From the NCBI GenBank assembly GCA_965226885.1, contig CBDDEL010000015.1, forward strand, positions 608,001 to 672,000: 64,000 nucleotides of DNA, written 5' to 3'. This document shows positions 2,769 through 20,569 of the stretch, in pieces. The stretch comes from Opitutales bacterium (GTDB lineage Bacteria > Verrucomicrobiota > Verrucomicrobiia > Opitutales > UBA2987). Below the pieces are notes generated by a model. The model made no database searches and was not told the origin of the DNA. It saw only the letters and a list, made by a program, of their open reading frames with translations. Each line of letters opens with the position of its first letter. The stretch's first letter is position 1. Position numbers and translations under genes: made by a program.

Positions 2769-3682
2769 AGTACCAGTTTGTCAAAGACAACGAGGGGCGC
2801 TTCAAGATCGAGGAAATATGCTCGGCGATGGGGATTTGTCGCAGTGGCTATTACTGCTGGAGGCACCGAGCGCCCTCGGCCCGGCGGATCGAGGACGAGG
2901 GAATCAAGGGGGCGATCCTGAAGGTACACAAAGAGGCCAAGGGCCGCTATGGGCATCGGCCAATGCACCGCCATCTGAAGGATGATGAGGGCATCGATTG
3001 CGGCCGTGACCGGGCTCTGCGTCTGATGCGTGAAATGGGAATCAAAAGCACCCAGAGTAAACGCTTTAAGCCATTAAGAACCAACAGTAACCATCCCTAT
3101 GGTTACAGCCCCAATGTGCTTAAAAAGCATGGCCAGCCGACCCATATCGACGAGGTCTGGGTGGCGGACACGACCTACCTACGGACCCTGGCCGGTTGGA
3201 TGTACTTGGCCACGGTGATGGACCTGTTCAGCCGACGCCTGCTGGGCTGGAGCGTTTCCAACCACAACGACGCGAAGCTGGTTGGCAAGGCCCTCAAAGC
3301 CGCGGCCATGACCCGCGGCACACTGCGCACCGGGATTATTCATCACAGCGATCGGGGCAGCCCCTACGCCAGCGACGACTATCAGAGGCTGGTCTCTGAA
3401 CTAGGCATGAAGCCGAGCATGAGCGCCCAAGGCAACTGCTACGACAACGCGGCCATGGAATCGTTCTACGGCCGCTTCAAGACCAGCACGATTCGAGGCC
3501 GCCACTTTGCCGACGAGCGCGAACTGCGATCAACTGTCTTCGAATACGTGGAAATCTTCTACAACCGATATCGCAAACATTCCTCTCTGAGTTACCAAAG
3601 CCCAGTCCAATTCGAGGAAAATATTTGCCCCCCATGGGGGGCAACGAGAAAACAAAACCCTTTACCAAAACAAGCCGCCTGA
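2765..3682 (+). CDS. IS3 OrfB integrase-like DDE transposase
   Basis: WVADTTY, HSDRGSPY and GNCYDNAAMESF motifs. In the -1 frame relative to OrfA. Confidence 0.92.
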   Translation: MKYQFVKDNEGRFKIEEICSAMGICRSGYYCWRHRAPSARRIEDEGIKGAILKVHKEAKGRYGHRPMHRHLKDDEGIDCGRDRALRLMREMGIKSTQSKRFKPLRTNSNHPYGYSPNVLKKHGQPTHIDEVWVADTTYLRTLAGWMYLATVMDLFSRRLLGWSVSNHNDAKLVGKALKAAAMTRGTLRTGIIHHSDRGSPYASDDYQRLVSELGMKPSMSAQGNCYDNAAMESFYGRFKTSTIRGRHFADERELRSTVFEYVEIFYNRYRKHSSLSYQSPVQFEENICPPWGATRKQNPLPKQAA

Positions 3683-3998
3683 CACACTAATCAATAAACA
3701 ATGAATATAAGAGAATCCCGTGTCCAACAAATCCAGTACACGTCATAATAAAGTATTAAAAGAGAGTGGTTGATAAATAAGTTGTTTGTGGTTTATTAAG
3801 AATAAATTTGGATTGGTTACAACAAATAATCCATAGTCTTATTCTGCCACGAAAAATGAAGATAACCATAAGGATATTAAGGCATGAAAACGAGCCTCCC
3901 CGAAGCTACTTATCTGACCCATGAATTTTCCCCATGCGCCATGGAATGCAATTTTGGGATTGATTGATTCGATCAAAAACAGATCTAGGTCAAAAAGT

Positions 3999-7716: not shown

Positions 7717-8518
7717 GGTAGTGTATTAAGTAGGAATGGTGGCTAATTCTTGATTATATTGATGAATGAAAAGTCTCAGACAGGTTTCATGCATACTCTT
7801 AAGCTTGGAAAAGGAGAGGGTTTTGCGTGTGAAACGACCCAGTCGTTGGCGCAGGGTATTGTTCCATCGTTCCACATGGGCCGTTTCACCGGTCTCTTTT
7901 CCCACGGATCGGTTATGAGGAAAGACTTCATCATAAGTGCTCCAAAAGTCGCTGTAGGTGGCACATCTTTTGTAGGCCCGTGGCAGACGCTCGTAAAGTT
8001 CCCGGCAACGATACCAATCCCGAGGCCCAATGGCATAGGAGAGGATTTGACGGGTGCGTCGGCAAAGAGCGATCCAAACCCATTGGGCATCGCTCTTGCG
8101 CCCCACAAAAGACCACAGTTCGTCCAGTTCAATGACATCATGGCGGCGGGCCGCAAGAATCGTGCTTTTGAGCGGTCGCAGCGATTGTCGTTTTTTTTAA
8201 CCAACTCAAACCGGTGTTGGGACTCACCCCGAAGGCGCGCTGTAAACCGCGTAGACTGCTGCGTTCCTGATAGACTCGAAGGATCATTTCTTTTTGCTCT
8301 TCGGTGTATTTCACTGTGGGGTTTTCGCGGCTTTGTTTACCACAATCATGGCAGCGGTAGCGCTGTTTATGGTTGGGCGTCTTGCCAAATTTAATGATAT
8401 TTTCACTTCCACAGTGCCGACAATTAATAATTTTAGTAACCATGCACTAAAAATAAACTGCCTAACGCTATTTGTACAGCTAAAAATACAAAATAACATT
8501 CTTTTTTTATACACTACC
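7717..8518 (-). mobile_element. IS1-family element, copy B (802 bp; insA 8138-8443, insB frame to 7726)
   Basis: Nearly identical to copy A. Flanks GTCGCAAT / AAATCAGG show no TSD. Confidence 0.93.
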
Positions 8519-10002: not shown

Positions 10003-11031
10003 ATGCAAGCCATTGTAAAAAAAGAAGCGGGACCCGGCCTGGCTCTGAAAAGAGTGCGCATTCCGGAGCCGGGCCATAACGATGTCCTCATCAAAGTGCT
10101 CAAGACTTCCATTTGCGGGACCGATGTGCATATCGACCTGTGGGACGACTGGGCGGCAAAAACGATCAAGGCGCCCATGATTATCGGCCATGAGTTTGTC
10201 GGCCGGGTCCATGCCCTGGGCAAGAACGTGCAGGGTTCTCAAAAAGGGGACCTGGTCACGGGCGAGGGGCATCTTGTCTGCGGGCATTGCCGCAATTGCC
10301 TGGCCGGACGGCGGCATTTGTGCAGTAATACGGTGGGGGTGGGGGTGCATCGCGACGGCGCTTTTGCCGAGTATGTCTGCATACCGGCCACCAATGTCTG
10401 GCATGCCGATCCGGCCATATCCACCGAGGTCATTTCCTGTTTCGACCCTTTGGGCAATGCAGTGCATACGGCGTTGACTTACGATCTGGTGGGGGAAGAT
10501 GTCCTCATAACCGGGGCCGGGCCCATCGGCTGCATGGCGGTGGCCATTGCCAAACACGCGGGGGCCCGCCATGTCGTGGTGACCGACCTCAACCCCTACC
10601 GGCTGGACCTGGCCCGCCAGATGGGCGCTTCCGTAGCCATCGACCCGCGCAGCGAATCATTAAAAGATGTGAAAAAGCTGCTCGATATGAAAGAGGGCTT
10701 CGATTTTGGGTTGGAAATGTCCGGCAGTCCGCAAGCCCTCAGCGAGATGATCGACGTCATGTTCCACGGCGGGAGCATCGCCCTACTGGGTCTGCCCTCC
10801 AAGAACATCACCATCGACTTGAACTCCATCATCTTCAATGGGCTGACCTTAAAAGGCATCTACGGGCGCAAAATGTACGAGACCTGGTATAAAACCACGG
10901 TCATGCTACAGGCCGGTCTCGACATCGAACCAGTGATCACCCACCGCTTCCATTACACCGAATTTCAAAAAGGCTTCGAACTAATGAAAAGCGGCCAATG
11001 CGGAAAAGTCATCCTCGTCTGGTCGAAGTAA
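10003..11031 (+). CDS. tdh: L-threonine 3-dehydrogenase
   Basis: [32 protein letters not shown] and [12 protein letters not shown] motifs. Confidence 0.96.
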
Positions 11032-11043
11032 AAGACACCTTGG

Positions 11044-11943
11044 TCAAAAATTTTCCTGTTCGGCGTAGGCGCAAGTTGCCGGTGTGCCATCCGCCTCTTT
11101 GAATATGGAATAGTATTCCTTGCGGGGAATTACCATGTTATCCGCGCTACGGTAGTGAAATTGAACAGCCCGGCGGCGTTGGGGGGATCGATTGGGCGGT
11201 GTTTCATGAGGCATCATGCTGGAAAAGAAAAGTACGCCGCCGGCCTTTATTTCGATCGGCTTCGCCTGAGAGGGATCGATGCGGCCTTTCATGATCTCGC
11301 AGTCGTAGGTGTGATGGTGCCGTAGGGGGCCAAGCTGGTGCCCTCCAGGAATTACATGCATACAGCCGTTTTCGGCTGTGGCATCGTCCAGGGCTAGCCA
11401 CACACCACAAACCTTTTCAAGTTTTTGAATGGAAAAATAGGCGTTATCCTGATGCCAGGGTTTCTCTGTCCCAATCAGTGGCGGTTTAATCAGCCCCATG
11501 GTTTGGTAGTGCACGGGATTCGAGCCGAGGATGGACCTCACGACCCCTTGCAGCTTGGGGTGGTTTTTCGTGAGATAAATGAAGTGGGGCGTCTCGTTCT
11601 GGAAATTCATGAATTTGCGGACATTCAGCACGAGTTCCTCCAATTTATCGGGATGGGGTTCGTAACCCGCCTCGAGCCAGAACCCGCATTCCCCCCCTTT
11701 TTTATTGAAGCGAGCCCCTGAGTAATTTGTTTTGCGGCCATCGTTCAGCGTCCATTCAGCCAATTCTTCGTTGAAGGCGTATTTGCGGATTATGTTTGAG
11801 ATATCGGCGAGGGCGGCCTCCACCTCATGCCGGGAAAGGGCGTTTTCAAACGCAAGATAACCCTGTTCGTTATACAGTTCCAATTGCCTCAAGGTGAGGG
11901 TTTCGGGGCAATCCTCAAAACGTGAATCTATCGTTTCAGTCAT
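11044..11943 (-). CDS. Phytanoyl-CoA dioxygenase (PhyH) family Fe/2OG enzyme
   Basis: KPWHQD...WLALDDATAENGCM...HET..N.S..RRRA. Confidence 0.9.
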   Translation of the reverse strand: MTETIDSRFEDCPETLTLRQLELYNEQGYLAFENALSRHEVEAALADISNIIRKYAFNEELAEWTLNDGRKTNYSGARFNKKGGECGFWLEAGYEPHPDKLEELVLNVRKFMNFQNETPHFIYLTKNHPKLQGVVRSILGSNPVHYQTMGLIKPPLIGTEKPWHQDNAYFSIQKLEKVCGVWLALDDATAENGCMHVIPGGHQLGPLRHHHTYDCEIMKGRIDPSQAKPIEIKAGGVLFFSSMMPHETPPNRSPQRRRAVQFHYRSADNMVIPRKEYYSIFKEADGTPATCAYAEQENF

Positions 11944-12129
11944 GGTAGCGATCTTATCATGTCAACAGCTAAACAGTAAAAAGACACGGGAGGCAAATAT
12001 TTGTTATTTTGTGTTTTTTGCTGTTTTTTTTGAAGTTTAATCAAACGGAGCCAACGGTAGTGTCCTAATTTGGAATGTCTTTTTAACTGGAAATATTCTC
12101 AAATATGTGCAATATTGCATAAAAAGGGG

Positions 12130-12201
12130 TAGTGGAGGTATGGGGACTTGCACCCCAAGCGGTCACAGGTGTAGAGCAGGTCGCCGCACTCTGCTACCCC
12201 C
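12130..12201 (-). ncRNA. Putative tRNA/tmRNA-like structured RNA
   Basis: GGGGGTA/TACCTCC acceptor-like stem with G3:U70, followed by A and CTA. T-arm TGGGG-TGCAAGT-CCCCA. AGAG/CTCT D-like stem. Folded by eye only. Confidence 0.55.
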
Positions 12202-12207
12202 TTTTTG

Positions 12208-13197
12208 TCAGCCTTCTTCAAAGTCCATTGGTATAGTTTCATTGAATTTTGGTGCAGCTATATCTAGTTTTCTCTTGAACTCATCCCAAGAATGACAGGT
12301 TTTCATCAAAAACGTAACATTTGAAATATGTTGTTTCAATTCGGGAACACCGTAATCCTCTGTGAAATGCTGGTGATGTTTTCTCGCACGACCCCCAGAA
12401 GTGGTTCGTGGATTCTTTTTCTTTAATTCGGAAAGGACTTTAGGGGCCATTCTGTTGTAAACTATATCATTTGTCCAGTGGCCCACATATTGGGGTTTTT
12501 GAGTTCCTTCGCCGTCAGGGAAAGATAATTCTTTTAAACGAAAAAGTTCCTTATAAAAACTCGGGTTAAACCGACGAGTCCATTTTGACCATTCATCTTT
12601 AATATATTTATCCAGAATTTTTTGTAAGGCCAATTTGTCTCTGATTTCTTGATAGCCAGTGACCTCATCCACTAACGCAATAATGCCGACCTTTGCTAAG
12701 ACCCGTGTAATTATTTCGCACTGGTCAGCAATCTCTCGCTGTTGTTTATTTAACCCCGGTGAGCGTTTACGTGCTTCAAGAACGGCATCACAAATTCTTG
12801 GCAAGATCGTTGCTTCGTAGGCAACTGCCGGAACCCCTCCACGTCCGGGGCGAATGAATCTTATAGGACGATTTAGCTCCATGGCCAAGTCATTCTCGAT
12901 AAACGGTTTAAGGTATTCTTGAGACAGAAAACCCTTCAATATCGCCCCATGGGATTGTCCAAGCCCTAAAGCTTCTTGCATACCTCTTCCAGACAATACG
13001 CGAGTACCATTATCAAGAACATAGCATTCAAGCTTTTGATTGCCTAAGCTTAATTTATTATCGGCCGCACCCCATTGGGCCCTTGGTAGGCTCCACTTGG
13101 CTTTAGCCGCTTTTGAGGCAATTTCCTTTCTGGTTTTAGCATCGAGCTTTTTCGCCCGTGCTTTACCGCCTTTAGATTGCATAGATTTATCTTCCAT
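12208..13197 (-). CDS. P63C-domain protein with basic N-terminal GGKARA motif
   Basis: GGKARAKKL..RKEIASKAAKAKW, LECYVLDNGTRVLSGRG, VGIIALVDEVTGYQ, YVGHWTNDIVY and KHHQH motifs. Confidence 0.85.
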   Translation of the reverse strand: MEDKSMQSKGGKARAKKLDAKTRKEIASKAAKAKWSLPRAQWGAADNKLSLGNQKLECYVLDNGTRVLSGRGMQEALGLGQSHGAILKGFLSQEYLKPFIENDLAMELNRPIRFIRPGRGGVPAVAYEATILPRICDAVLEARKRSPGLNKQQREIADQCEIITRVLAKVGIIALVDEVTGYQEIRDKLALQKILDKYIKDEWSKWTRRFNPSFYKELFRLKELSFPDGEGTQKPQYVGHWTNDIVYNRMAPKVLSELKKKNPRTTSGGRARKHHQHFTEDYGVPELKQHISNVTFLMKTCHSWDEFKRKLDIAAPKFNETIPMDFEEG

Positions 13198-13220
13198 GCA
13201 TAGAAATAAATATTATTTTA

Positions 13221-13232
13221 TGCTTGCAAGCA
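13221..13232. promoter_or_regulatory. Palindromic candidate operator between divergent P63C and transposase genes
   Basis: Perfect palindrome TGCTTGCAAGCA near the centre of the 62-bp AT-rich intergenic gap. Confidence 0.5.
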
Positions 13233-13259
13233 AGCTTTTTTTATGAAAATCTTTTATGC

Positions 13260-15655
13260 ATGGCAAATAAATTATCTACCTCCAAAAAAGTTCTCGCTGT
13301 TTCTGCCCTTTGCGAAGGCTCCTCCATCCGTTCAATCGAGCGAATGACAGGCATCCACAGGGATACAATCATGCGCCTGGGCGTCCGTATAGGTCAAGGA
13401 TGCGCCGCTATCATGGATGAAAAGATGCGTGACTTGCCATGTAAGGATTTGCAGGTCGATGAGATATGGGGCTTTATTGGAAAGAAGGAAAGGAATGTCT
13501 ATTACGGTGAACTCGGAAAAGGTGATATATGGACATTCATTGCGCTCGACAGTGAAAGTAAGCTAATTCCTTCGTTCCGGGTTGGCCGACGTGATACCGT
13601 GACAGCACAGGCATTTCTTGAAGATTTGGCTTCCCGCATGAAAAACCGTGTCCAGCTTTCCAGCGATGCGCTACGGGCATACAGGGATTGTGTCGAAAAG
13701 GCTTTTGGCTGTGAAGTCGACTACGGGCAGATTGTAAAAATCTTCGCCCAAAGCGATGTTGAAGCACAGCGTAGGTATAGCCCACCCCAAGTCATTTCAG
13801 TTACGCGAAACCCTATTGCTGGCAATCCTGACAAATCCCGAATCTGCACAAGCCATATTGAGAAGCAAAACCATACCTTGCGGATGCACTGCCGCCGATT
13901 GAGCCGTCTGACTAACCCGGATATTTCATGAAGGGTAAAGTTTGGCTCGTTATTGCTATTGGAGATGGATTTCTTTGTATTTTGAGCAGATCGTCTTGAT
14001 TTTTAGGTGTTTTTCAGGGTGTAGAGACACTGCCCCCTTTCCCCCATTGGTTCGGTAGTGCCGGGGGCAGCACCAATGCACCCTTTAGGTTGGCACCAAT
14101 CGGCGGGCCGCATGGTTGAAAAGACTGGCCCAAGGATAACTCTCACTTAGGTGAAAGTGAATCGTTCGGGTGTTGCGCACGATGACCGCTCCGATCTTGA
14201 TTAATTTGAGCCGCAGGGTGTGCCATTGGGCCCGCGCCCACTTCGTCCCTTTTAAGGCTAACCGGCGCATGGCTTCCATCAAGGTGTAGGCCAGCGCCGA
14301 CAAGAGCAATCGCCACTGATTGGCCCACCATTGATGGGCGCTGGTGCGCTCGCTGAACAATTGCATCTGTTCCTTGATTCGGTTCTCCATTTCACCGCGG
14401 CCACAGTATACCTTGTCGTAAAGCTCCTGGGGATCGCCCGGCAGGTTCGTCACCACGAAGCGCGGGTTGGACCCCTGTGCGGTGTGTTCGGCTTTATGGA
14501 TGACCAACCGCAGCCATCGCCACGAATCGGCAGCATAGACGAAGTCCTGGAATAACCGTTGTTTTTTACCCCTTAGTTCGAACCATTCTTTGGCCTGCTT
14601 TTGCAACTGCTGGGCGTCTTGCTGCAAGCGTGCATTGCGAGCCATCCCCACGATGTAACTAACTTCGTTGCGGTCGCACCAAGAGAGTATCCGGTCTCGA
14701 CAAAATCCACTGTCGGCGCGCCAAATAATCCGCGTACGGGGCCAGCTTTGGCGAATCCGTTTAACCAGCAATTTGAGGATGGCCCCGGCATGCTTGCTGG
14801 CATCGATCTTGCTCGGCCGCAGGTAGGCCACCAGCAGCTGATCACCGCAAAAAACATATAGCGGCAGAAAACAGTAATGATCATAATAACCGTGGAGAAA
14901 ACGTCCCTCCTGGAGCCCGTGCACCGGATTGTCGGTGGCGTCAAAGTCCAGGATGATCTCTTCGGGTTCCTCGGCAAAGGAGCCCATGAACTGTTCGACC
15001 AACAGCTCGTTTACCGCAAAGGCCGCCCGCCGATCCTGCCCGTTTTCAAAACGACACAAAGTCGGCGCGCTGGCCAACGTTTCAATGCGCCCCGTTACCG
15101 TTTGCAACAATGGATCGTGGCGCAGGGTATCAAAGTCGTTCAAATCCTCATAGCCCGCCACCAGCCCGTAAACGCGCTGCCGCAGCATCCCCAATACCTC
15201 ATGGCGTACTTTGCCCTTCTGCCGTTTGTCCACTAACTGTCGGGCCGCTCGTTCGGTCAAGCCCAACTGCCGATCCACTTCCCGGATCAAAAGCAGTCCG
15301 GCATCCGAAGTAACCTCTCCGCCCTTGAAATCAACCCGCACACGGCGGCCTTTTACCCTTGTCAACTGTAGCTTTAATTGTTTACCTTTTGTCATCGCTG
15401 ATATTGCTTTAATTATTGATCTATCCTGCTGTATATCAGCAGTTAAGCATATCAACGATACTTTTTTTACGAAATATCCGGGCTAATGCTTTCAGCAAGA
15501 AACTGGAAAATTTCAAGGCGGCTGTGCCCCTCAACTTTGCTTACTACAATTTCGTCAAGATTCACGGCTCTATCCGTTGCACTCCTGCGATGGAAGCAGG
15601 TGTCACGGATTCAATCTGGACAGTCAGCGATCTAGTTGAAATGATTGAGAAGTGA
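13260..15655 (+). pseudogene. Single-ORF IS1-family transposase split by IS1380
   Basis: Joining 13260-13915 to 15487-15655 gives a 274-aa ORF (..RRLSRLT-NAFSKKLEN..) with HTH, VDEIWGF, SSDAL and IEKQN. Confidence 0.9.
13916..15482 (-). mobile_element. IS1380-family element, copy 2 (1567 bp; transposase 14085 to ~15395)
   Basis: IRs CCCGGATATTTC. TSD CTAA at 13912-13915 and 15483-15486. Confidence 0.96.
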
Positions 15656-15939: not shown

Positions 15940-17651
15940 GTCATTTTAGAATAAATAAGCTTAATATAGAGGCTGTCCCAAAAATATAAAGATTTTATAG
16001 TCAACTGGATGACGTTGATAAAAAGAGCCGGAAAGAGCAAGTTTTTGCTCGATCCGGCCAAAAAAGGGTTCTATAATTGGGTTCTATAATTGAGTTAGCG
16101 AAAATCAATATAGCCCTTTCTATGAAAAATATAGCCATCCAATGCCTCCTGCGTCCAGCTTTAACTGTGGTCGACCGGTGCCTCGATTACGATAACTTCC
16201 GCGCCACCATTGATCGAATCGATCGGTTGCTGATCGACTCGGAGGTGGAATCGCAGGCCATTGAGCTGGCCTTGGAGGGGTGGCCGCCAATGGGTCTAAA
16301 GGCCCGGCGGCAGCGGGCCAGTTTTGCCATCAAGGCACTGCGCATGGATACGCTGGGCCGTCTGCTCGGAGGGATTTCGTTTCGGCATTTGTCGCGGGCT
16401 CTGGGCAGCAGCGATCTGTTGGCCGACTTTTGCCGTGTCCGGCAGATCGATGGCATCAGGGGCATCTCCAAAAGCACCCTGGAGCGGGCCTCGAAGTTTT
16501 TCAGCGAAGAGCAGTTGAGGGCCTTGCACCGGACCTTGACTGAGGTGGTGGGCGATGCCCTTCTGGCCCGGCAGGTGGGATTGGACAAGCCGATTGACAC
16601 CACCATTTGCCTGATCGACGGCACCTGTTTGGAGGCTAACATTCATTGGCCGACGGACTGGGTATTACTCAAGGATGTAGCCGGCACGTTGCTCAAAGCG
16701 ATCCGGCTGATCCGCGAGAAGGCCGGTGTGCGCCATCGCATGCCGATCGAACCGGAGCCCTTGGCTCGGCAGATGAATCGGCTGTGCATACAGATGACCC
16801 ACAGCCGGCGGCGAAAGGACAGCGCGCGGCAGCGCAAGGGTATCTTGAGGCAGATGAAAAAGCTGCTCAAACGGATCGGGGAGCATGCCCGCAGTCACCG
16901 GGAATTATTGCAAGCCTGCTGGGAGCAAAGCGATTACAGCGAAAAACAGGTCCAACAGATCCTCGCCCGGATGGAGCGCATGAGCGAGCAAATCCCGGTG
17001 GTCATCAAACAGGCGCACGAGCGGATCATTGGCGGCCGCCAGGTGAAAAACGCAGAGAAAGTCTTGAGTGTTTACGAACTCGATGTGCAGGTGATTGTGC
17101 GAGGTAAAGCGGGCCAAGAGGTCGAGTTCGGCAACACCCTGTTTTTGGGAGAAAGCGTTGAAGGGTACCTGCTGGACTGGAAACTCTACGGCAGCCGAAC
17201 TCCAAGCGAAAATGAACAAATGCAAGAGAGTTTGCAAAGACAGAACCGCTTCAACCTGGAAGAACCCATAGCGGCCATGTGCGCGGACCGGGGATTTGCC
17301 TCCCAGCGGGCCCGCCGGCAGTTAGCCCAGGAGGGAATCTACGACGCGCTCTGTCCACGCGATCCGAAGCAGTTGAAAAAACGGATGGAGGAACCACTGT
17401 TCAGACAATTGCAAAAGCGCCGGGCCAGCACCGAAGGGCGGATCGGGGTATTGAAGAATTGTAAACGCCGGGATGAAACCGGTACGGGGGTCGGGGTAAA
17501 ACCGGTACGCTTGGAATAAGGTTTAGGTTAGTAATTGCAGGTACGTCAAGGTTTAGCAGGTACGTCAAGGTTTAGGGTTTGGGAGTTGGTTTTGGGGATT
17601 GGCTTGGGGTCGGTGAGGAGGCCGGAGGCCGACGAGCCGGGCCCAAGGCGT

Positions 17652-18362
17652 TTATTGTTTTGTGCCACGGCGACGGCGTCGAGCATCGCGCAAGCGGTAG
17701 CTTTGCCCGTTGGCTTCGAGGATATGCACCCGATGGGTGAGTCGGTCCAGCAGAGCTCCGGTGAGCCGTTCGGAACCGAGCACTTCGATCCAGTTCTCAA
17801 AGGGCAGGTTGGTGGTGACGATGAGACTGGTGCGCTCGTAAGCGCGGCTGACCACGTCGAAGAGCAGTTCGGAACCGGTCTTGGAAAAAGGGACGTAACC
17901 GAGTTCGTCGAGGATGAGTAGGTCGAGCCTTTCGAGTTGCTTCATGAAGCGCTGCAGGTCGTGGTTGTCGCGTTGCTCGAGCATATGGGTAACCAGGGCG
18001 GTGACCAGGTGCGTTTTACCGGTACCGGCGTTACCGAGGAGCAGCACGTTTTCGCGCTGGTCGACATACTCCCCGCGCATGAGCTCTCGGATGAGCGCTT
18101 CGTTGATCGAGGGCTGCGCTTCAAAGGCGAAGCTCTCGAGGGTCTTGAGCACGGGGAAACGGGCGTTTTTGATCCGCCGCTGGGCGGCCCGCTGTTCGCG
18201 TTCAATGAGCTCCCGTTCGACCAGATGCAACAAAAAGGCGGCGTAATCGAGCCGGTCCCGGGAACAAGCCGCGGCCACCGCCGGCCATTCGCGCAGGATG
18301 GTGGGCAACTTCAGTTTCTTGAGGTGATGGTGTAACAGCAGCTGGTTTTTTTCTTCCTTCAT
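17652..18362 (-). CDS. istB: IS21 helper ATPase IstB, probably internally deleted
   Basis: Walker A GNAGTGKT, LLILDELGY, TTNLPF and LLDRLTH motifs. Confidence 0.9.
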   Translation of the reverse strand: MKEEKNQLLLHHHLKKLKLPTILREWPAVAAACSRDRLDYAAFLLHLVERELIEREQRAAQRRIKNARFPVLKTLESFAFEAQPSINEALIRELMRGEYVDQRENVLLLGNAGTGKTHLVTALVTHMLEQRDNHDLQRFMKQLERLDLLILDELGYVPFSKTGSELLFDVVSRAYERTSLIVTTNLPFENWIEVLGSERLTGALLDRLTHRVHILEANGQSYRLRDARRRRRGTKQ

Positions 18363-19864
18363 AAAGCCCCTCCTGGAATCTTGAGCAGTTCGCTGTAGGC
18401 ACCGAGGTCAGGGGCGGCCACACGGACGTGACGCAGGTGTGGATGGCCGTCCAGCCGGAAGGTTCTGCTCCCGTAGTCTTCCTGAGGATAGAGATACTGG
18501 GCGATGGCCTCACGAGTCAGTCCCCCCACCCGCAGGGCCGAGACGACGGCCTGCTGCAAGGCCGCCATGGGGTGTTTCTCCAACAGCCGCAGCACCCGGA
18601 TATACTCCCGGGTGCCTTCGCCCCCGCATTGGCTTTCGAGCCGGCGTCTGAGGACCTGCAGGCACTGCGGCAACTGCCAGCCCGAGAGTGGGCGGGCGAA
18701 GTCCAAAGCGCCCGGTTTTTTCTCCAGCAAAGCCAGGTAGTGCACCGGCTCGAAAGAGACTTGCTCTTTATCCCAAATGCGGCGGTGCCGGGCCACCTCT
18801 TGGCCCCCACAGAAGATCACCACCTGCCGACAGGACCCTTCCACCACCACCGGATGGTGGGCGCAGCGCACCGGCACCGAATAGTCGTTGCACTCGAAGC
18901 GCACCAGCGAGAGGCTGCTGACGCAGGTCGAGCGTTTGCGGCTCGCTTCAAAGGGTATGGGCGGCAACGCCAGCATGACGGCGCGCTCCTCGGCCAGCAG
19001 TTCCTTTTTCACCGCCCTTTTCCCGCGTAATTTACGCTCCATGTCCCGCTCACATGCCTCCAACAGCTTTGCGTTGAGTTCCTCCAGGTCCCGAACCTGC
19101 GGTACCGGTACCAGGAAGTTGGCCCGGGCATAACGCACGATCCCCTCGACCACGCCCTTCTCGTTGGGCCGGGCGGGCAGACAGAAGTGTTCCTCGAACA
19201 GGTAATGGCTCTGTAGCTGCAGAAACCCGTCGGTCAGCTTGCGTTCACGCGAACCGATAATCTTACCCACCGCCACCTTCGAGTTGTCATAGCTGATGCG
19301 CCGGGGCACCGCCCCGAAAAACTCAAAAGCTCGCAGGTGCCCCTCCCAGAAGCTCTCCGTGCACTCCCGTTCGAACACCTGCACGAAAAAGGCATCGCTG
19401 TAGGGCAGGCTCATGGCAAAAAATGGCCGCCTACGCAATTGCCCCGCCTCCTTCACCAGGGCATGACCGAAGTCCACCTGTCCCTCCCCGGGGCGGTGCT
19501 CCAGCGGCACGAACACTTCCCGCCGCCTCGCTCGCAGCTCGGCCACCACCTCCTTGACCGCCGTGTAGCCCCCTTGGTAGCCCTTCTCCCGACCCAAACG
19601 CTGGTAGATCCGTTTGGCCGTATGGCGCTGCTTCTTGGGCACGTTCCGGTCCGCTTTGAGCACCTCCTCGATCCAGCCCACATACGGATCGATCTTGCGC
19701 TCTCGCCTCTTCTTGCGCCGGTATCCCGGCGGCTGGGAATAGGCCAGCATCTTTCCCAGGGTCTCCCAGTGCAGTCCCTCTTCTCGCATTACAGAGCGCT
19801 TGCTCTGCTTGTCCCGCAGCACTTTGTGCCGCACTCTTGTCCATTGCTTCATATCTCGATACAC
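18359..19864 (-). CDS. istA: IS21 transposase IstA
   Basis: QRHTAKRIY, GQVDFG, YDN and EKGVVEG motifs. AGGAGG RBS before the GTG start. Confidence 0.93.
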   Translation of the reverse strand: MYRDMKQWTRVRHKVLRDKQSKRSVMREEGLHWETLGKMLAYSQPPGYRRKKRRERKIDPYVGWIEEVLKADRNVPKKQRHTAKRIYQRLGREKGYQGGYTAVKEVVAELRARRREVFVPLEHRPGEGQVDFGHALVKEAGQLRRRPFFAMSLPYSDAFFVQVFERECTESFWEGHLRAFEFFGAVPRRISYDNSKVAVGKIIGSRERKLTDGFLQLQSHYLFEEHFCLPARPNEKGVVEGIVRYARANFLVPVPQVRDLEELNAKLLEACERDMERKLRGKRAVKKELLAEERAVMLALPPIPFEASRKRSTCVSSLSLVRFECNDYSVPVRCAHHPVVVEGSCRQVVIFCGGQEVARHRRIWDKEQVSFEPVHYLALLEKKPGALDFARPLSGWQLPQCLQVLRRRLESQCGGEGTREYIRVLRLLEKHPMAALQQAVVSALRVGGLTREAIAQYLYPQEDYGSRTFRLDGHPHLRHVRVAAPDLGAYSELLKIPGGAL

Positions 19865-20569
19865 TCCTCCTTTCTAGGATAAGCGTACCGGTTTTAAAGC
19901 GCCCTCTTTACCGTACCGGTTTTTCCCCGGCGTTTACAAAGAATCGCTGGCAGGCCGGGCGGTTGCGCAGCAAAGGCTTTGCCAACCGCTCGATCAGCGT
20001 AGCCTGGTCGGTACTCTCGCACAACCTATGGAAAGTAGCCAAGATGCTGGCCCAGCAAGACGAACTAAAAACCAAAGCGGCGGCCTAGAGAGCGGAAAAG
20101 CAAGGACAATACTTTTTCACAGCCTTACTGTCGGCTCATACAAAGAAAACCAGGCAACCGGACCCCAAAACCAGTATCCTAACGTCATAGGAGAGCAAAG
20201 TTGATACTCTCCCAAATGCAAATACCTCTAAAATGAGCGCCTATCAAAAGCCCTCGCAAAAATCACCCTTTTGGGACAGCCTCTAATATAGCCCCTCAAG
20301 GATTTAAGAAAGTATATGAGGTGAGAATAGAGGTAGCTCAATCCACATCTGACGAAGACGGCGACAGAATTTTTCTAGGGGCACCGTGTATCGGACCGAA
20401 AGAACTTGAATACTGGAAAAATCAATTGATTAGTCAGATTAAGAAACTTCGTTTCCCAAATTAGGACACTACCGAGCCAACCTATCGATTGACGGTTTTG
20501 GGGTTTTGTGATATCATGCATCACTTTTAGCGATCTGGTTATGCGAAACGAAACGAATTTATTTAGGGA

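Follow-up and report, generated by a model that had tools for sequence, protein, structure and literature searches.

Alanine-type tRNA-like element behind a P63C gene as a probably decaying member of a mini-tRNA family carried by an IS1-family-like transposon

The stretch of DNA analysed here (the window) comprises 64,000 nucleotides of a contig of an Opitutales bacterium (CBDDEL010000015.1), and on its minus strand, directly behind the gene of a P63C-domain protein, lies the subject of this study, a 72-nt alanine-type tRNA-like element. The element and the P63C gene are located together in an IS1-family-like transposon of 8.4 kb, and G1 of the element (12201) is found six nt past the TGA stop of P63C (12210-12208). 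The features of the element, its neighbour gene and the transposon borders are as follows.

12130..12201, minus strand: 72-nt alanine-type tRNA-like element, recognised from the sequence and by a match of 25.6 bits to the covariance model R1 (see below)
12141..12157, minus strand: T arm of the element, 5-bp stem UGGGG/CCCCA with the loop UGCAAGU, matching its counterpart in the alignment with the family model
12159..12187, minus strand: long central arm in the anticodon position, hand parse of the sequence, 7 of 11 positions paired
12121..12206, minus strand: outer stem of AAAAAGGGGGUAG (12206-12194) with CUACCCCUUUUU (12132-12121), followed by a U run, from the minimum free energy (MFE) structure of a 111-nt stretch
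12208..13197, minus strand: P63C-domain protein gene, 329 aa (Pfam PF10546, E 1.1e-28; phrog_2384, of unknown function, E 5e-107)
12056..12073: left terminal inverted repeat GGTAGTGTCCTAATTTGG, 18 bp, perfect, with the 8-bp target duplication GAGCCAAC at 12048-12055
20456..20473: right terminal inverted repeat, 18 bp, perfect, with the target duplication GAGCCAAC at 20474-20481

The initial annotation had described a minus-strand stretch of this length and position with a 7-bp acceptor stem including G3:U70 and a T arm with a 5-bp stem and a 7-nt loop, and the sequence is indeed as described: the acceptor stem is formed by 12201-12195 with 12140-12134, and A73 stands at 12133, followed by CUA rather than CCA. 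G3:U70 and A73 are read directly in the sequence, so the view of a tRNA mimic with alanine identity marks holds, as does its carriage by a transposon with 18-bp perfect repeats and an 8-bp duplication. The middle part has to be redrawn. Instead of the reported anticodon-less stub there is a central arm spanning positions 15-43 of the element, mispaired at 4 of 11 positions, with a 7-nt loop CUCUACA (12176-12170) in which U33 is present but position 37 is C, and the same loop was found in the related loci L058, L044 and L321 introduced below. The D arm proposed earlier (AGAG/CUCU) overlaps this loop, so it is probably spurious; a D arm is absent and a 7-nt linker stands in its place. Furthermore, the T loop carries G instead of U at position 55.

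Thus the element departs from a canonical tRNA in the missing D arm, the mispaired anticodon stem, C37 in place of a purine, and G55. It shares with tmRNA the G3:U70 acceptor with A73 and the T arm abutting the 3' strand of the acceptor, and it has neither a tmRNA-type 5' segment nor a match to the tmRNA model RF00023 (gathering score 47 bits). No tRNA or tmRNA call was obtained for it: ARAGORN detected no such gene across the 64-kb window, and in 11000-14000 Rfam at E<=10 matched neither tRNA (RF00005) nor tmRNA. Folded in isolation, the 72 nt form the acceptor, one long central hairpin and the T arm (-25.8 kcal/mol), a stability which is unremarkable (z -0.24; 78 of 200 shuffles were as stable). 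By energy the fold is thus inconspicuous, and it is the relatives of the element that argue for a real RNA.

Such relatives were recognised by a structural scan of 479 kb of loci for a 7-bp acceptor and a perfect 5-bp T stem with a T-loop motif, the T arm abutting the acceptor, which returned 21 matches as compared with 1 per shuffle (three shuffles). When G3:U70 and A73 were additionally required, 11 matches remained against none in five shuffles, duplicates of the window being excluded: four host tRNA-Ala genes, the loci L003 and L004, and five RNAs linked to insertion sequences (IS), namely those of L058, L083 and L119 and the two of L095 (L095#1 and L095#2). The family as delimited here consists of the window element and the RNAs of L058, L083, L095 (two), L119, L044 and L321. 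Its other members are reduced cloverleaves of 67-75 nt with a GGGG/CUCC acceptor top, G3:U70, A73 and a 7-nt loop N-U-Y-U-A-C-A. Those of L083, L119 and L095#1 fold into clean cloverleaves with a small D hairpin, the 7-nt loop and the T arm (z -2.1 to -2.9), and those of L083, L058 and L119 gave tmRNA matches over both ends of the model, with scores of 25-30 bits, which is less than the gathering score.

Because the 5' G runs of the family were placed wrongly by MAFFT, the covariance model R1 was seeded from L119 aligned to itself, using its MFE structure. R1 matched the window element over its full length, 12130-12201 on the minus strand, with 25.6 bits (E 1.5e-3 over 365 kb), and this was its sole match in the window. 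The scores of the other members were 40.1 bits for L083, 39.8 for L058, about 30 for each of the two in L095, and 15.1 for L044, which is cut by a contig end. Two matches belong to non-members, an ordinary tRNA in L187 (30.7 bits) and a false positive in a coding region of L077 (19.3 bits), and at E<=1 the host tRNA-Ala genes were not matched. A second model, R2, had the window element as its top match genome-wide, but the element is among the sequences from which R2 was built; for finding members in five genomes R2 was of no use, as it picked up ordinary tRNAs too. Family membership was judged by the GGGG..CUCC acceptor top with G3:U70 and A73, the abutting 5-bp T arm, and the central arm with the N-U-Y-U-A-C-A loop. 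The window element has these features, is matched by a model that was built without it, and lies inside ends of the GGTAGTGTCCTAATTTGG type; on the evidence of its sequence it is a member of an IS-borne family of alanine-type mini-tRNAs.

The stems of the family covary. In an alignment of seven sequences, which are related to each other and were fitted to the model, 93.2% of the cells are paired; the corresponding figures are 66.6% for shuffles, none of 500 reaching 93.2%, and 46-58% with slid partners. Of 23 pairs, 16 have changed on both sides. G3:U70 is found in 7/7, G1-C72 and G2-C71 in 6/6, and positions 4-7 covary. The loops are alike as well: CUCUACA in the window, L058, L044 and L321, C/GUUUACA in L083, L095#2 and L119, and GUCAGCA in L095#1. 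The 9-mer CUCUACACC, which is the central loop with its flanking CC, is identical in the window, L058, L044 and L321, and the chance of sharing it in a 37-nt stretch is estimated as roughly 1e-4. The 5' strand of the long arm of the window element, GGCGAC, also recurs in L083. If the loop is read as a 7-nt one, the anticodon is of the stop type in 6 of the 8 IS-linked members found before the loop-fixed scans (CUA in the window, L058 and L044; UUA in L083, L095#2 and L119), L095#1 having CAG; L321 (CUA) was found by a pattern that contains the loop and is thus no test of loop conservation. Position 37 is C in every family member. A GUUUACA hairpin in L003 is not conserved in L004, so it was put down to chance.

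When the element is folded with its flanks, the MFE structure prefers the 12-bp outer stem over the acceptor stem (z -1.56), and according to this model the outer stem may act as a terminator of P63C. It can be asked whether the whole stretch is nothing but an intrinsic terminator with a tRNA likeness arisen by chance. The outer stem followed by UUUUU dominates the flanked structure, there is no other terminator-like site behind P63C, and the tRNA-like fold has ordinary stability, all of which would suit such a view. But the "loop" enclosed by the stem is about 60 nt long, whereas an intrinsic terminator has a G+C-rich stem with a loop of 3-8 nt before the U run; it is outside the range of a simple terminator scan, which makes no call here. 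Chance explains neither the R1 match, nor the shared CUCUACACC loop, nor the fact that the cloverleaf members reside in this transposon family too. We regard this explanation as very improbable.

The R1/family alignment covers only the acceptor and the T arm of the window copy, which is probably a diverged and decaying family member, to judge from its sequence, and probably a relic. The comparisons with sequencing runs were made on assembled contigs. Compared with the window, one DNA contig of run X4 shows 3 differences over 12032-13300, two of which fall within the 72 nt (the last T-stem G is replaced by U, which breaks the pair, and a U-C mispair of the central arm by G-C); we read this as suggesting relaxed constraint, with the proviso that the counts are tiny and that at a contig depth of about 4 some differences may be sequencing errors.

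The transposon around the element contains, besides P63C, the following features.

13266..13916 and 15485..15643, plus strand: IS1-family-like transposase gene, split into two pieces that correspond in tblastn to residues 2-219 and 219-271 of the L058 transposase
13222..13235: palindrome GCTTGCAAGCAAGC in the spacer (13198-13265) between the divergent P63C and transposase genes
13913..15485: nested IS4-like element that splits the transposase, with its own repeats (DDE_Tnp_1_4, E 9.5e-164)
15967..20285: second nested insertion with 17-bp perfect inverted repeats and an IS21-like pair
17652..18362 and 18359..19864: the IS21-like pair of the second nested insertion, IstB and a Mu-transposase-like gene, respectively

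The transposase starting at 13266, divergent from P63C, matches Pfam DDE_Tnp_IS1 (PF03400, E 9e-5); its fragment in the window scores 23.2 bits, just below the cut-off of 24.1, and the transposase of L058 scores 25.6 bits. A DDE transposase of the DDE_Tnp_IS1 type, short inverted repeats starting with GGT, and 8-bp duplications, observed in four elements, liken the transposon to the IS1-family insertion sequences, in which the length of the target duplication is 8-9 bp. It differs from them by the highly diverse cargo beside identical 17-bp ends, by the recurrent, divergent P63C passenger, and by an RNA gene as passenger. A contig of the DNA run X2 consists of the left flank, GAGCCAAC, and then right-flank-like sequence, and looks like the unoccupied site in a relative. 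There is one copy of the element in the genome. P63C is a passenger gene of the transposon; PADLOC gave no match for the P63C of the window, and the contigs of the one RNA run, X7, cover 12962-13133, inside P63C, and do not reach the element. The palindrome in the spacer is a candidate shared operator of P63C and the transposase; it is GCTTGCAAGC-like, and a similar CTTGCAAGCA motif is found upstream of P63C in L026 (1920-1985). Just outside the left end of the transposon, at 12039-12047, strain contigs vary in the number of copies of a 9-nt unit (ATCAAACGC), and two distant relatives of the IS1-like transposase (about 25% identity) are located at 7753-8311 and 1319-1877 on the minus strand.

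The same ends bound the elements of L026 (duplication AAAAATCC) and L119 (duplication CTCTCAGT), and the 17-nt end motif CAAATTAGGACACTACC was found in more than 132 metagenome stretches and in 11 of 401 genomes of the phylum of the window, its own genome included. The sequence directly inside the ends varies widely, therefore the RNA is not part of the transposon end itself. The RNA was also considered as a general feature of the end, which was rejected, since the T-loop pattern occurs only in the window and L026 out of 176 repeat-proximal ends. Many of the elements bounded by CAAATTAGGACACTACC (loci L033-L187) lack a transposase, with unrelated cargo extending as far as the repeat, and some are as short as about 180 bp. 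Another copy of the transposon, in L054 (G081:C36), has a different tRNA-like gene at 322-393, 270 nt upstream of the transposase; it scores 39 bits with the Rfam tRNA model, lacks G3:U70 and has an 8-nt loop in the anticodon position.

In the other copies the RNA is in the sense orientation; it either follows directly on a cargo gene or a leader hairpin or precedes the transposase start by 45-70 nt. In L058 the order is a promoter-like site, a leader hairpin with a U run, the RNA, 47 nt with a ribosome-binding site, and the transposase ATG; in L095 it is the cargo stop, 9 nt, RNA#1, RNA#2, about 45 nt, and the transposase ATG; in L044 the RNA lies 300 nt upstream of the transposase. L119 is a 900-bp element with its own duplication, and L119 as well as L321/L478 retain the RNA and the leader, but of the transposase no more than the first codons. 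In L083 the RNA adjoins a tRNA gene, near a Bro-N cargo gene: at 3533-3688 the mini-tRNA is followed after 12 nt by a 73-nt tRNA (Rfam 64.6 bits) with the odd anticodon loop CCGCUAA, and the Bro-N cargo protein matches the candidate defence family PDC-S13 (E 1e-97). The layout of the window and L026, that is cargo gene, RNA and transposon end, corresponds to the layout of L119 without the transposase remnant, and the window copy stands directly behind its cargo gene like RNA#1 of L095. Seven transposase copies show no such RNA in the upstream stretches of 156-339 nt inspected by eye, so it is dispensable for transposition, and on sequence evidence the RNA is an optional passenger of the transposon.

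The initial annotation proposed that P63C and the RNA form a protein-RNA module, and a dedicated partnership, in which the RNA would be an antitoxin, ligand or sensor of P63C, can be examined in the 25 other P63C loci (23 genome loci and 2 viral ones). A homologous stretch after the P63C stop was found in only one of them, L026, and it is degenerate. L026 is a Verrucomicrobia metagenome-assembled genome (MAG) locus whose P63C protein is 49% identical to that of the window; its element of 2.66 kb has the same repeats and its own 8-bp duplication, and encodes a small open reading frame (ORF), a DNA methylase and P63C, and no transposase. Its stretch has GGGGGUR, ACCGC, the T hairpin and YACCUCC in common with the window, plus a 15-nt insert, and no recognisable loop; with its filters off, R2 recognised it at the T arm only (8.7 bits). 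Nothing comparable lies downstream of P63C in the closest relatives, L010-L012 (66-70% identity). The core pattern was searched in viral contigs and in 401 genomes of the phylum of L026 with 0 to 3 mismatches: there was no match in the viral contigs, and at 0 mismatches the genome of L026 was the only one among the 401; the matches at 3 mismatches were noise, read by eye as 5' ends of group II introns or coding DNA. P63C itself is present in 1 of the 401 genomes of the phylum of the window, namely in its own genome.

In favour of a partnership the RNA starts six nt behind the P63C stop, L026 repeats the layout of P63C followed by a similar stretch in a transposon of this kind despite a protein identity of no more than 49%, and one compensatory change (A7-U66 to G-C) links the acceptor stems of the two. 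These points are outweighed by the distribution. Besides the single degenerate case among the 25 loci, the RNA family occurs without P63C in six loci, with Bro-N cargo (L083), with cargo that has no Pfam match or was not scanned (L058, L095), or directly ahead of the transposase, and conversely P63C stands beside the same transposase without the RNA in eight loci (L011, L012, L018, L019, L020, L027, L030, L031). P63C is, as these loci suggest, a regular passenger of this transposon family; L012 is a complete, compact copy of 2.4 kb with variant repeats and an 8-bp duplication (AGGGTTGT), and its P63C (2001-2976) is interrupted: tblastn divides the gene into two parts that are not in one frame, and a stop is located at 2286-2288. 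The likeness to type III toxin-antitoxin and AbiF-like modules is not borne out either, since these have tandem RNA repeats and an RNA conserved beside the homologues of the protein, whereas at the window element Tandem Repeats Finder detected no array (12100-13400) and only L026 has the RNA among the other P63C loci; the lack of a PADLOC match for P63C points the same way. Conservation of the RNA after P63C is thus ruled out by its distribution over the P63C loci, the pairing is unsupported because only one of the 25 has a homologous stretch, and the presumed system does not appear to be one. The distribution largely refutes the partnership, to which we give very little credence.

The element might also be a decayed fragment of a tmRNA or tRNA-Ala gene of this host, either a leftover of an insertion of the integrase type or the product of a recent capture. 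The acceptor top GGGGG..CCUCC A does resemble the ends of the host tmRNA and the alanine tRNAs. However, both acceptor strands are present within one 72-nt unit, which also disposes of a one-sided remnant of an ssrA attachment site, the borders are transposon repeats with a target duplication and not an integrase site, the nearest relatives are not the genes of the host but RNAs in other transposon copies from unrelated metagenomes, and the host tmRNA is intact about 300 kb away on the same contig. Such an origin is hardly credible.

We are inclined, with some reserve, to the following explanation: the element is a diverged and probably decaying member of a family of passenger RNAs, tRNA-like and with alanine identity, which belong to a widespread IS1-family-like transposon and are processed from its transcript. 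Since most copies leave no room for an own promoter, the RNA would have to be part of a longer transcript and be excised from it. It would be made within this transcript and cut out by tRNA-processing enzymes, RNase P acting at the 5' end and RNase Z or exonucleases together with the CCA-adding enzyme at the 3' end, and the excision would separate the cargo message from that of the transposase. In a tRNA, the minihelix of acceptor and T arm is what these enzymes recognise (RNase P, RNase Z and the one adding CCA), and as the same minihelix is the best kept here, a role in processing, or as "punctuation", would suit it. G3:U70 and A73, which are invariant, suggest that after its release the RNA might also be charged by alanyl-tRNA synthetase (AlaRS); G3:U70, A73 and G1-C72/G2-C71 next to the covarying positions 4-7 fit the identity rules of this enzyme, and the fixed acceptor pairs point to its recognition, as far as the sequences can tell. 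The window copy, having lost the D arm and much of the pairing in the central arm, would most likely do no more than shape, jointly with the U run and the complementary flanks, the 3' end of P63C transcripts.

Several observations weigh against this explanation. The window copy is not upstream of a transposase and does not share its strand, as is usual in the family, but lies on the opposite strand and points to the transposon end. By eye, no such RNA is present in the 156-339 nt upstream of the transposases of L060, L063, L065, L081, L092, L104 and L114. The E value of the R1 match to the window copy is modest, with the 19.3-bit false positive in the same search, the fold stability of the element is ordinary, and the differences in the X4 contig are as few as stated above. 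The covariation is support, not proof, because an alignment fitted to the model favours the structure. In addition, the conserved G3:U70, A73 and N-U-Y-U-A-C-A loop are not explained by processing alone.

The last point leads to the possibility that the family, perhaps including the window copy, consists of working alanine-charged RNAs which act on translation, either as weak nonsense suppressors (anticodon CUA/UUA) or as non-decoding alanyl-RNAs that titrate AlaRS, EF-Tu or SmpB, and so tune the output of the transposase or ribosome rescue in the host. In this form the proposal would be that the IS1-family transposon and some phages carry alanine-chargeable mini-tRNAs as mobile translation modulators, with a stop-type anticodon fixed beside an abnormal C37, a thought that is rather unlikely though not far-fetched; weak stop suppression or the sequestration of AlaRS or SmpB would set the transposase level or blunt ribosome rescue, and excision by RNase P and RNase Z would split the cargo and transposase messages. 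The constancy of G1-C72, G2-C71 (6/6) and G3:U70 (7/7) while positions 4-7 covary, A73 in all members, the sub-threshold tmRNA matches over both model ends (25-30 bits), and the loops CUCUACA and C/GUUUACA, plus GUCAGCA in L095#1, are consistent with it, and a molecule of the size of the tRNA-like domain is said to inhibit tmRNA strongly (PMC4131195, PMC11915505). C37 in every member and the CAG of L095#1, which would read a leucine codon, are both bad for accurate decoding. The transposase stops do not track the loop (TAG with CUA in L058 and TAA with UUA in L095, but TGA with CUA in L044), no in-frame stops were seen in the transposase alignments, and the window copy has no D arm and carries G55. 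Read-through of the TAG inside the terminal repeat was considered and rejected, as only 18 of 163 transposon ends have a frame of at least 100 codons ending there and the transposase stops vary; likewise, no consistent complementarity of the loop with the repeat or the transposase leader was found by eye. The later members from viral contigs came from scans with loop and T-loop patterns in which U70 and the loop were fixed, so they are no test of conservation. On balance a role in translation seems doubtful to us.

These viral-contig scans gave alanine-type mini-tRNAs in L321/L478, L467, L516 and, inside a phage tRNA array, L504. Most of the TTTACACC matches in viral contigs were set aside as ordinary phage tRNAs, mostly with the loop UUUACAC and read as tRNA-Val(UAC), and L495 is probably coding. 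Two side observations concern viral contigs, both on the minus strand: in L257 a phage tRNA whose D arm is complete shares the CUCUACA(C) loop in the anticodon position with the window element, its stem pairing best with an 8-nt loop, and in L461 a 75-nt tmRNA-like RNA of the alanine type is followed after 16 nt by a small cysteine-rich ORF.

Among known systems the family resembles the tag-less (CDS-less) tmRNA, for example that of mycobacteriophage DS6A, which is thought to titrate AlaRS, EF-Tu or SmpB (PMC4131195, PMC11915505). Both are short RNAs of mobile elements with a GGGG..CUCC acceptor, G3:U70, A73, a T arm and no message. In contrast to the tag-less tmRNA, the IS-borne RNAs have retained a central arm, with a loop of 7 nt, and in many cases a small D hairpin as well; they have no tmRNA-type 5' GGAUUCGAC segment and are carried by an insertion sequence instead of a phage, and the window copy has no tmRNA match at E<=10. 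Two tag-less tmRNA-like genes of 66 nt were noticed elsewhere in the genome of the window, L003 (G000:C14:72494-72559; 49.3 bits, which exceeds the tmRNA gathering score of 47) and L004 (G000:C10:392994-393059; 40.9 bits, which falls short of it). Each (1501-1566 of its locus) has G3:U70, A73 followed by GCA, and a tmRNA-type GGAUUUCGAC segment, and the 640-bp block around it shows 93% identity from one site to the other; in L003 this block is behind an IS21-type istB gene and is followed by a small helix-turn-helix-like ORF.

With tRNA-Ala and the suppressor tRNAs of phages in which stop codons are recoded (PMC10879173) the family shares the alanine identity marks, the stop-type CUA/UUA loop and the carriage by mobile elements, and it differs from them by the reduced or absent D arm, C37, the lack of an ARAGORN call, RF00005 not being the best match, and the lack of recoded genes nearby.

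Signals for processing that have the shape of a tRNA are found in eukaryotes and organelles, as mascRNA at the 3' end of MALAT1 and as the tRNA punctuation of mitochondrial transcripts. The common feature is a tRNA-shaped unit in a longer transcript, directly behind or between genes; the RNA of L058 even matches the mascRNA model weakly (31 bits, threshold 42.5), and no bacterial insertion-sequence example of a tRNA-like processing signal was found in a literature search.

Several families of insertion sequences (IS200/IS605, IS110) are known to have guide or regulatory RNAs. For the IS1 family no RNA gene turned up in the literature search, nor did an RNA of tRNA shape that an insertion sequence regularly carries; the search covered listings and abstracts, ISfinder and subscription journals excepted. 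The element behind P63C is a worn member of what is apparently an undescribed, IS-borne branch of the theme of alanine-type mini-tRNAs and tag-less tmRNAs. If the RNAs of this family are processed and alanylated, they would carry this theme from phages to transposons, and would link the control of transposition to the machinery of tRNA processing or ribosome rescue.

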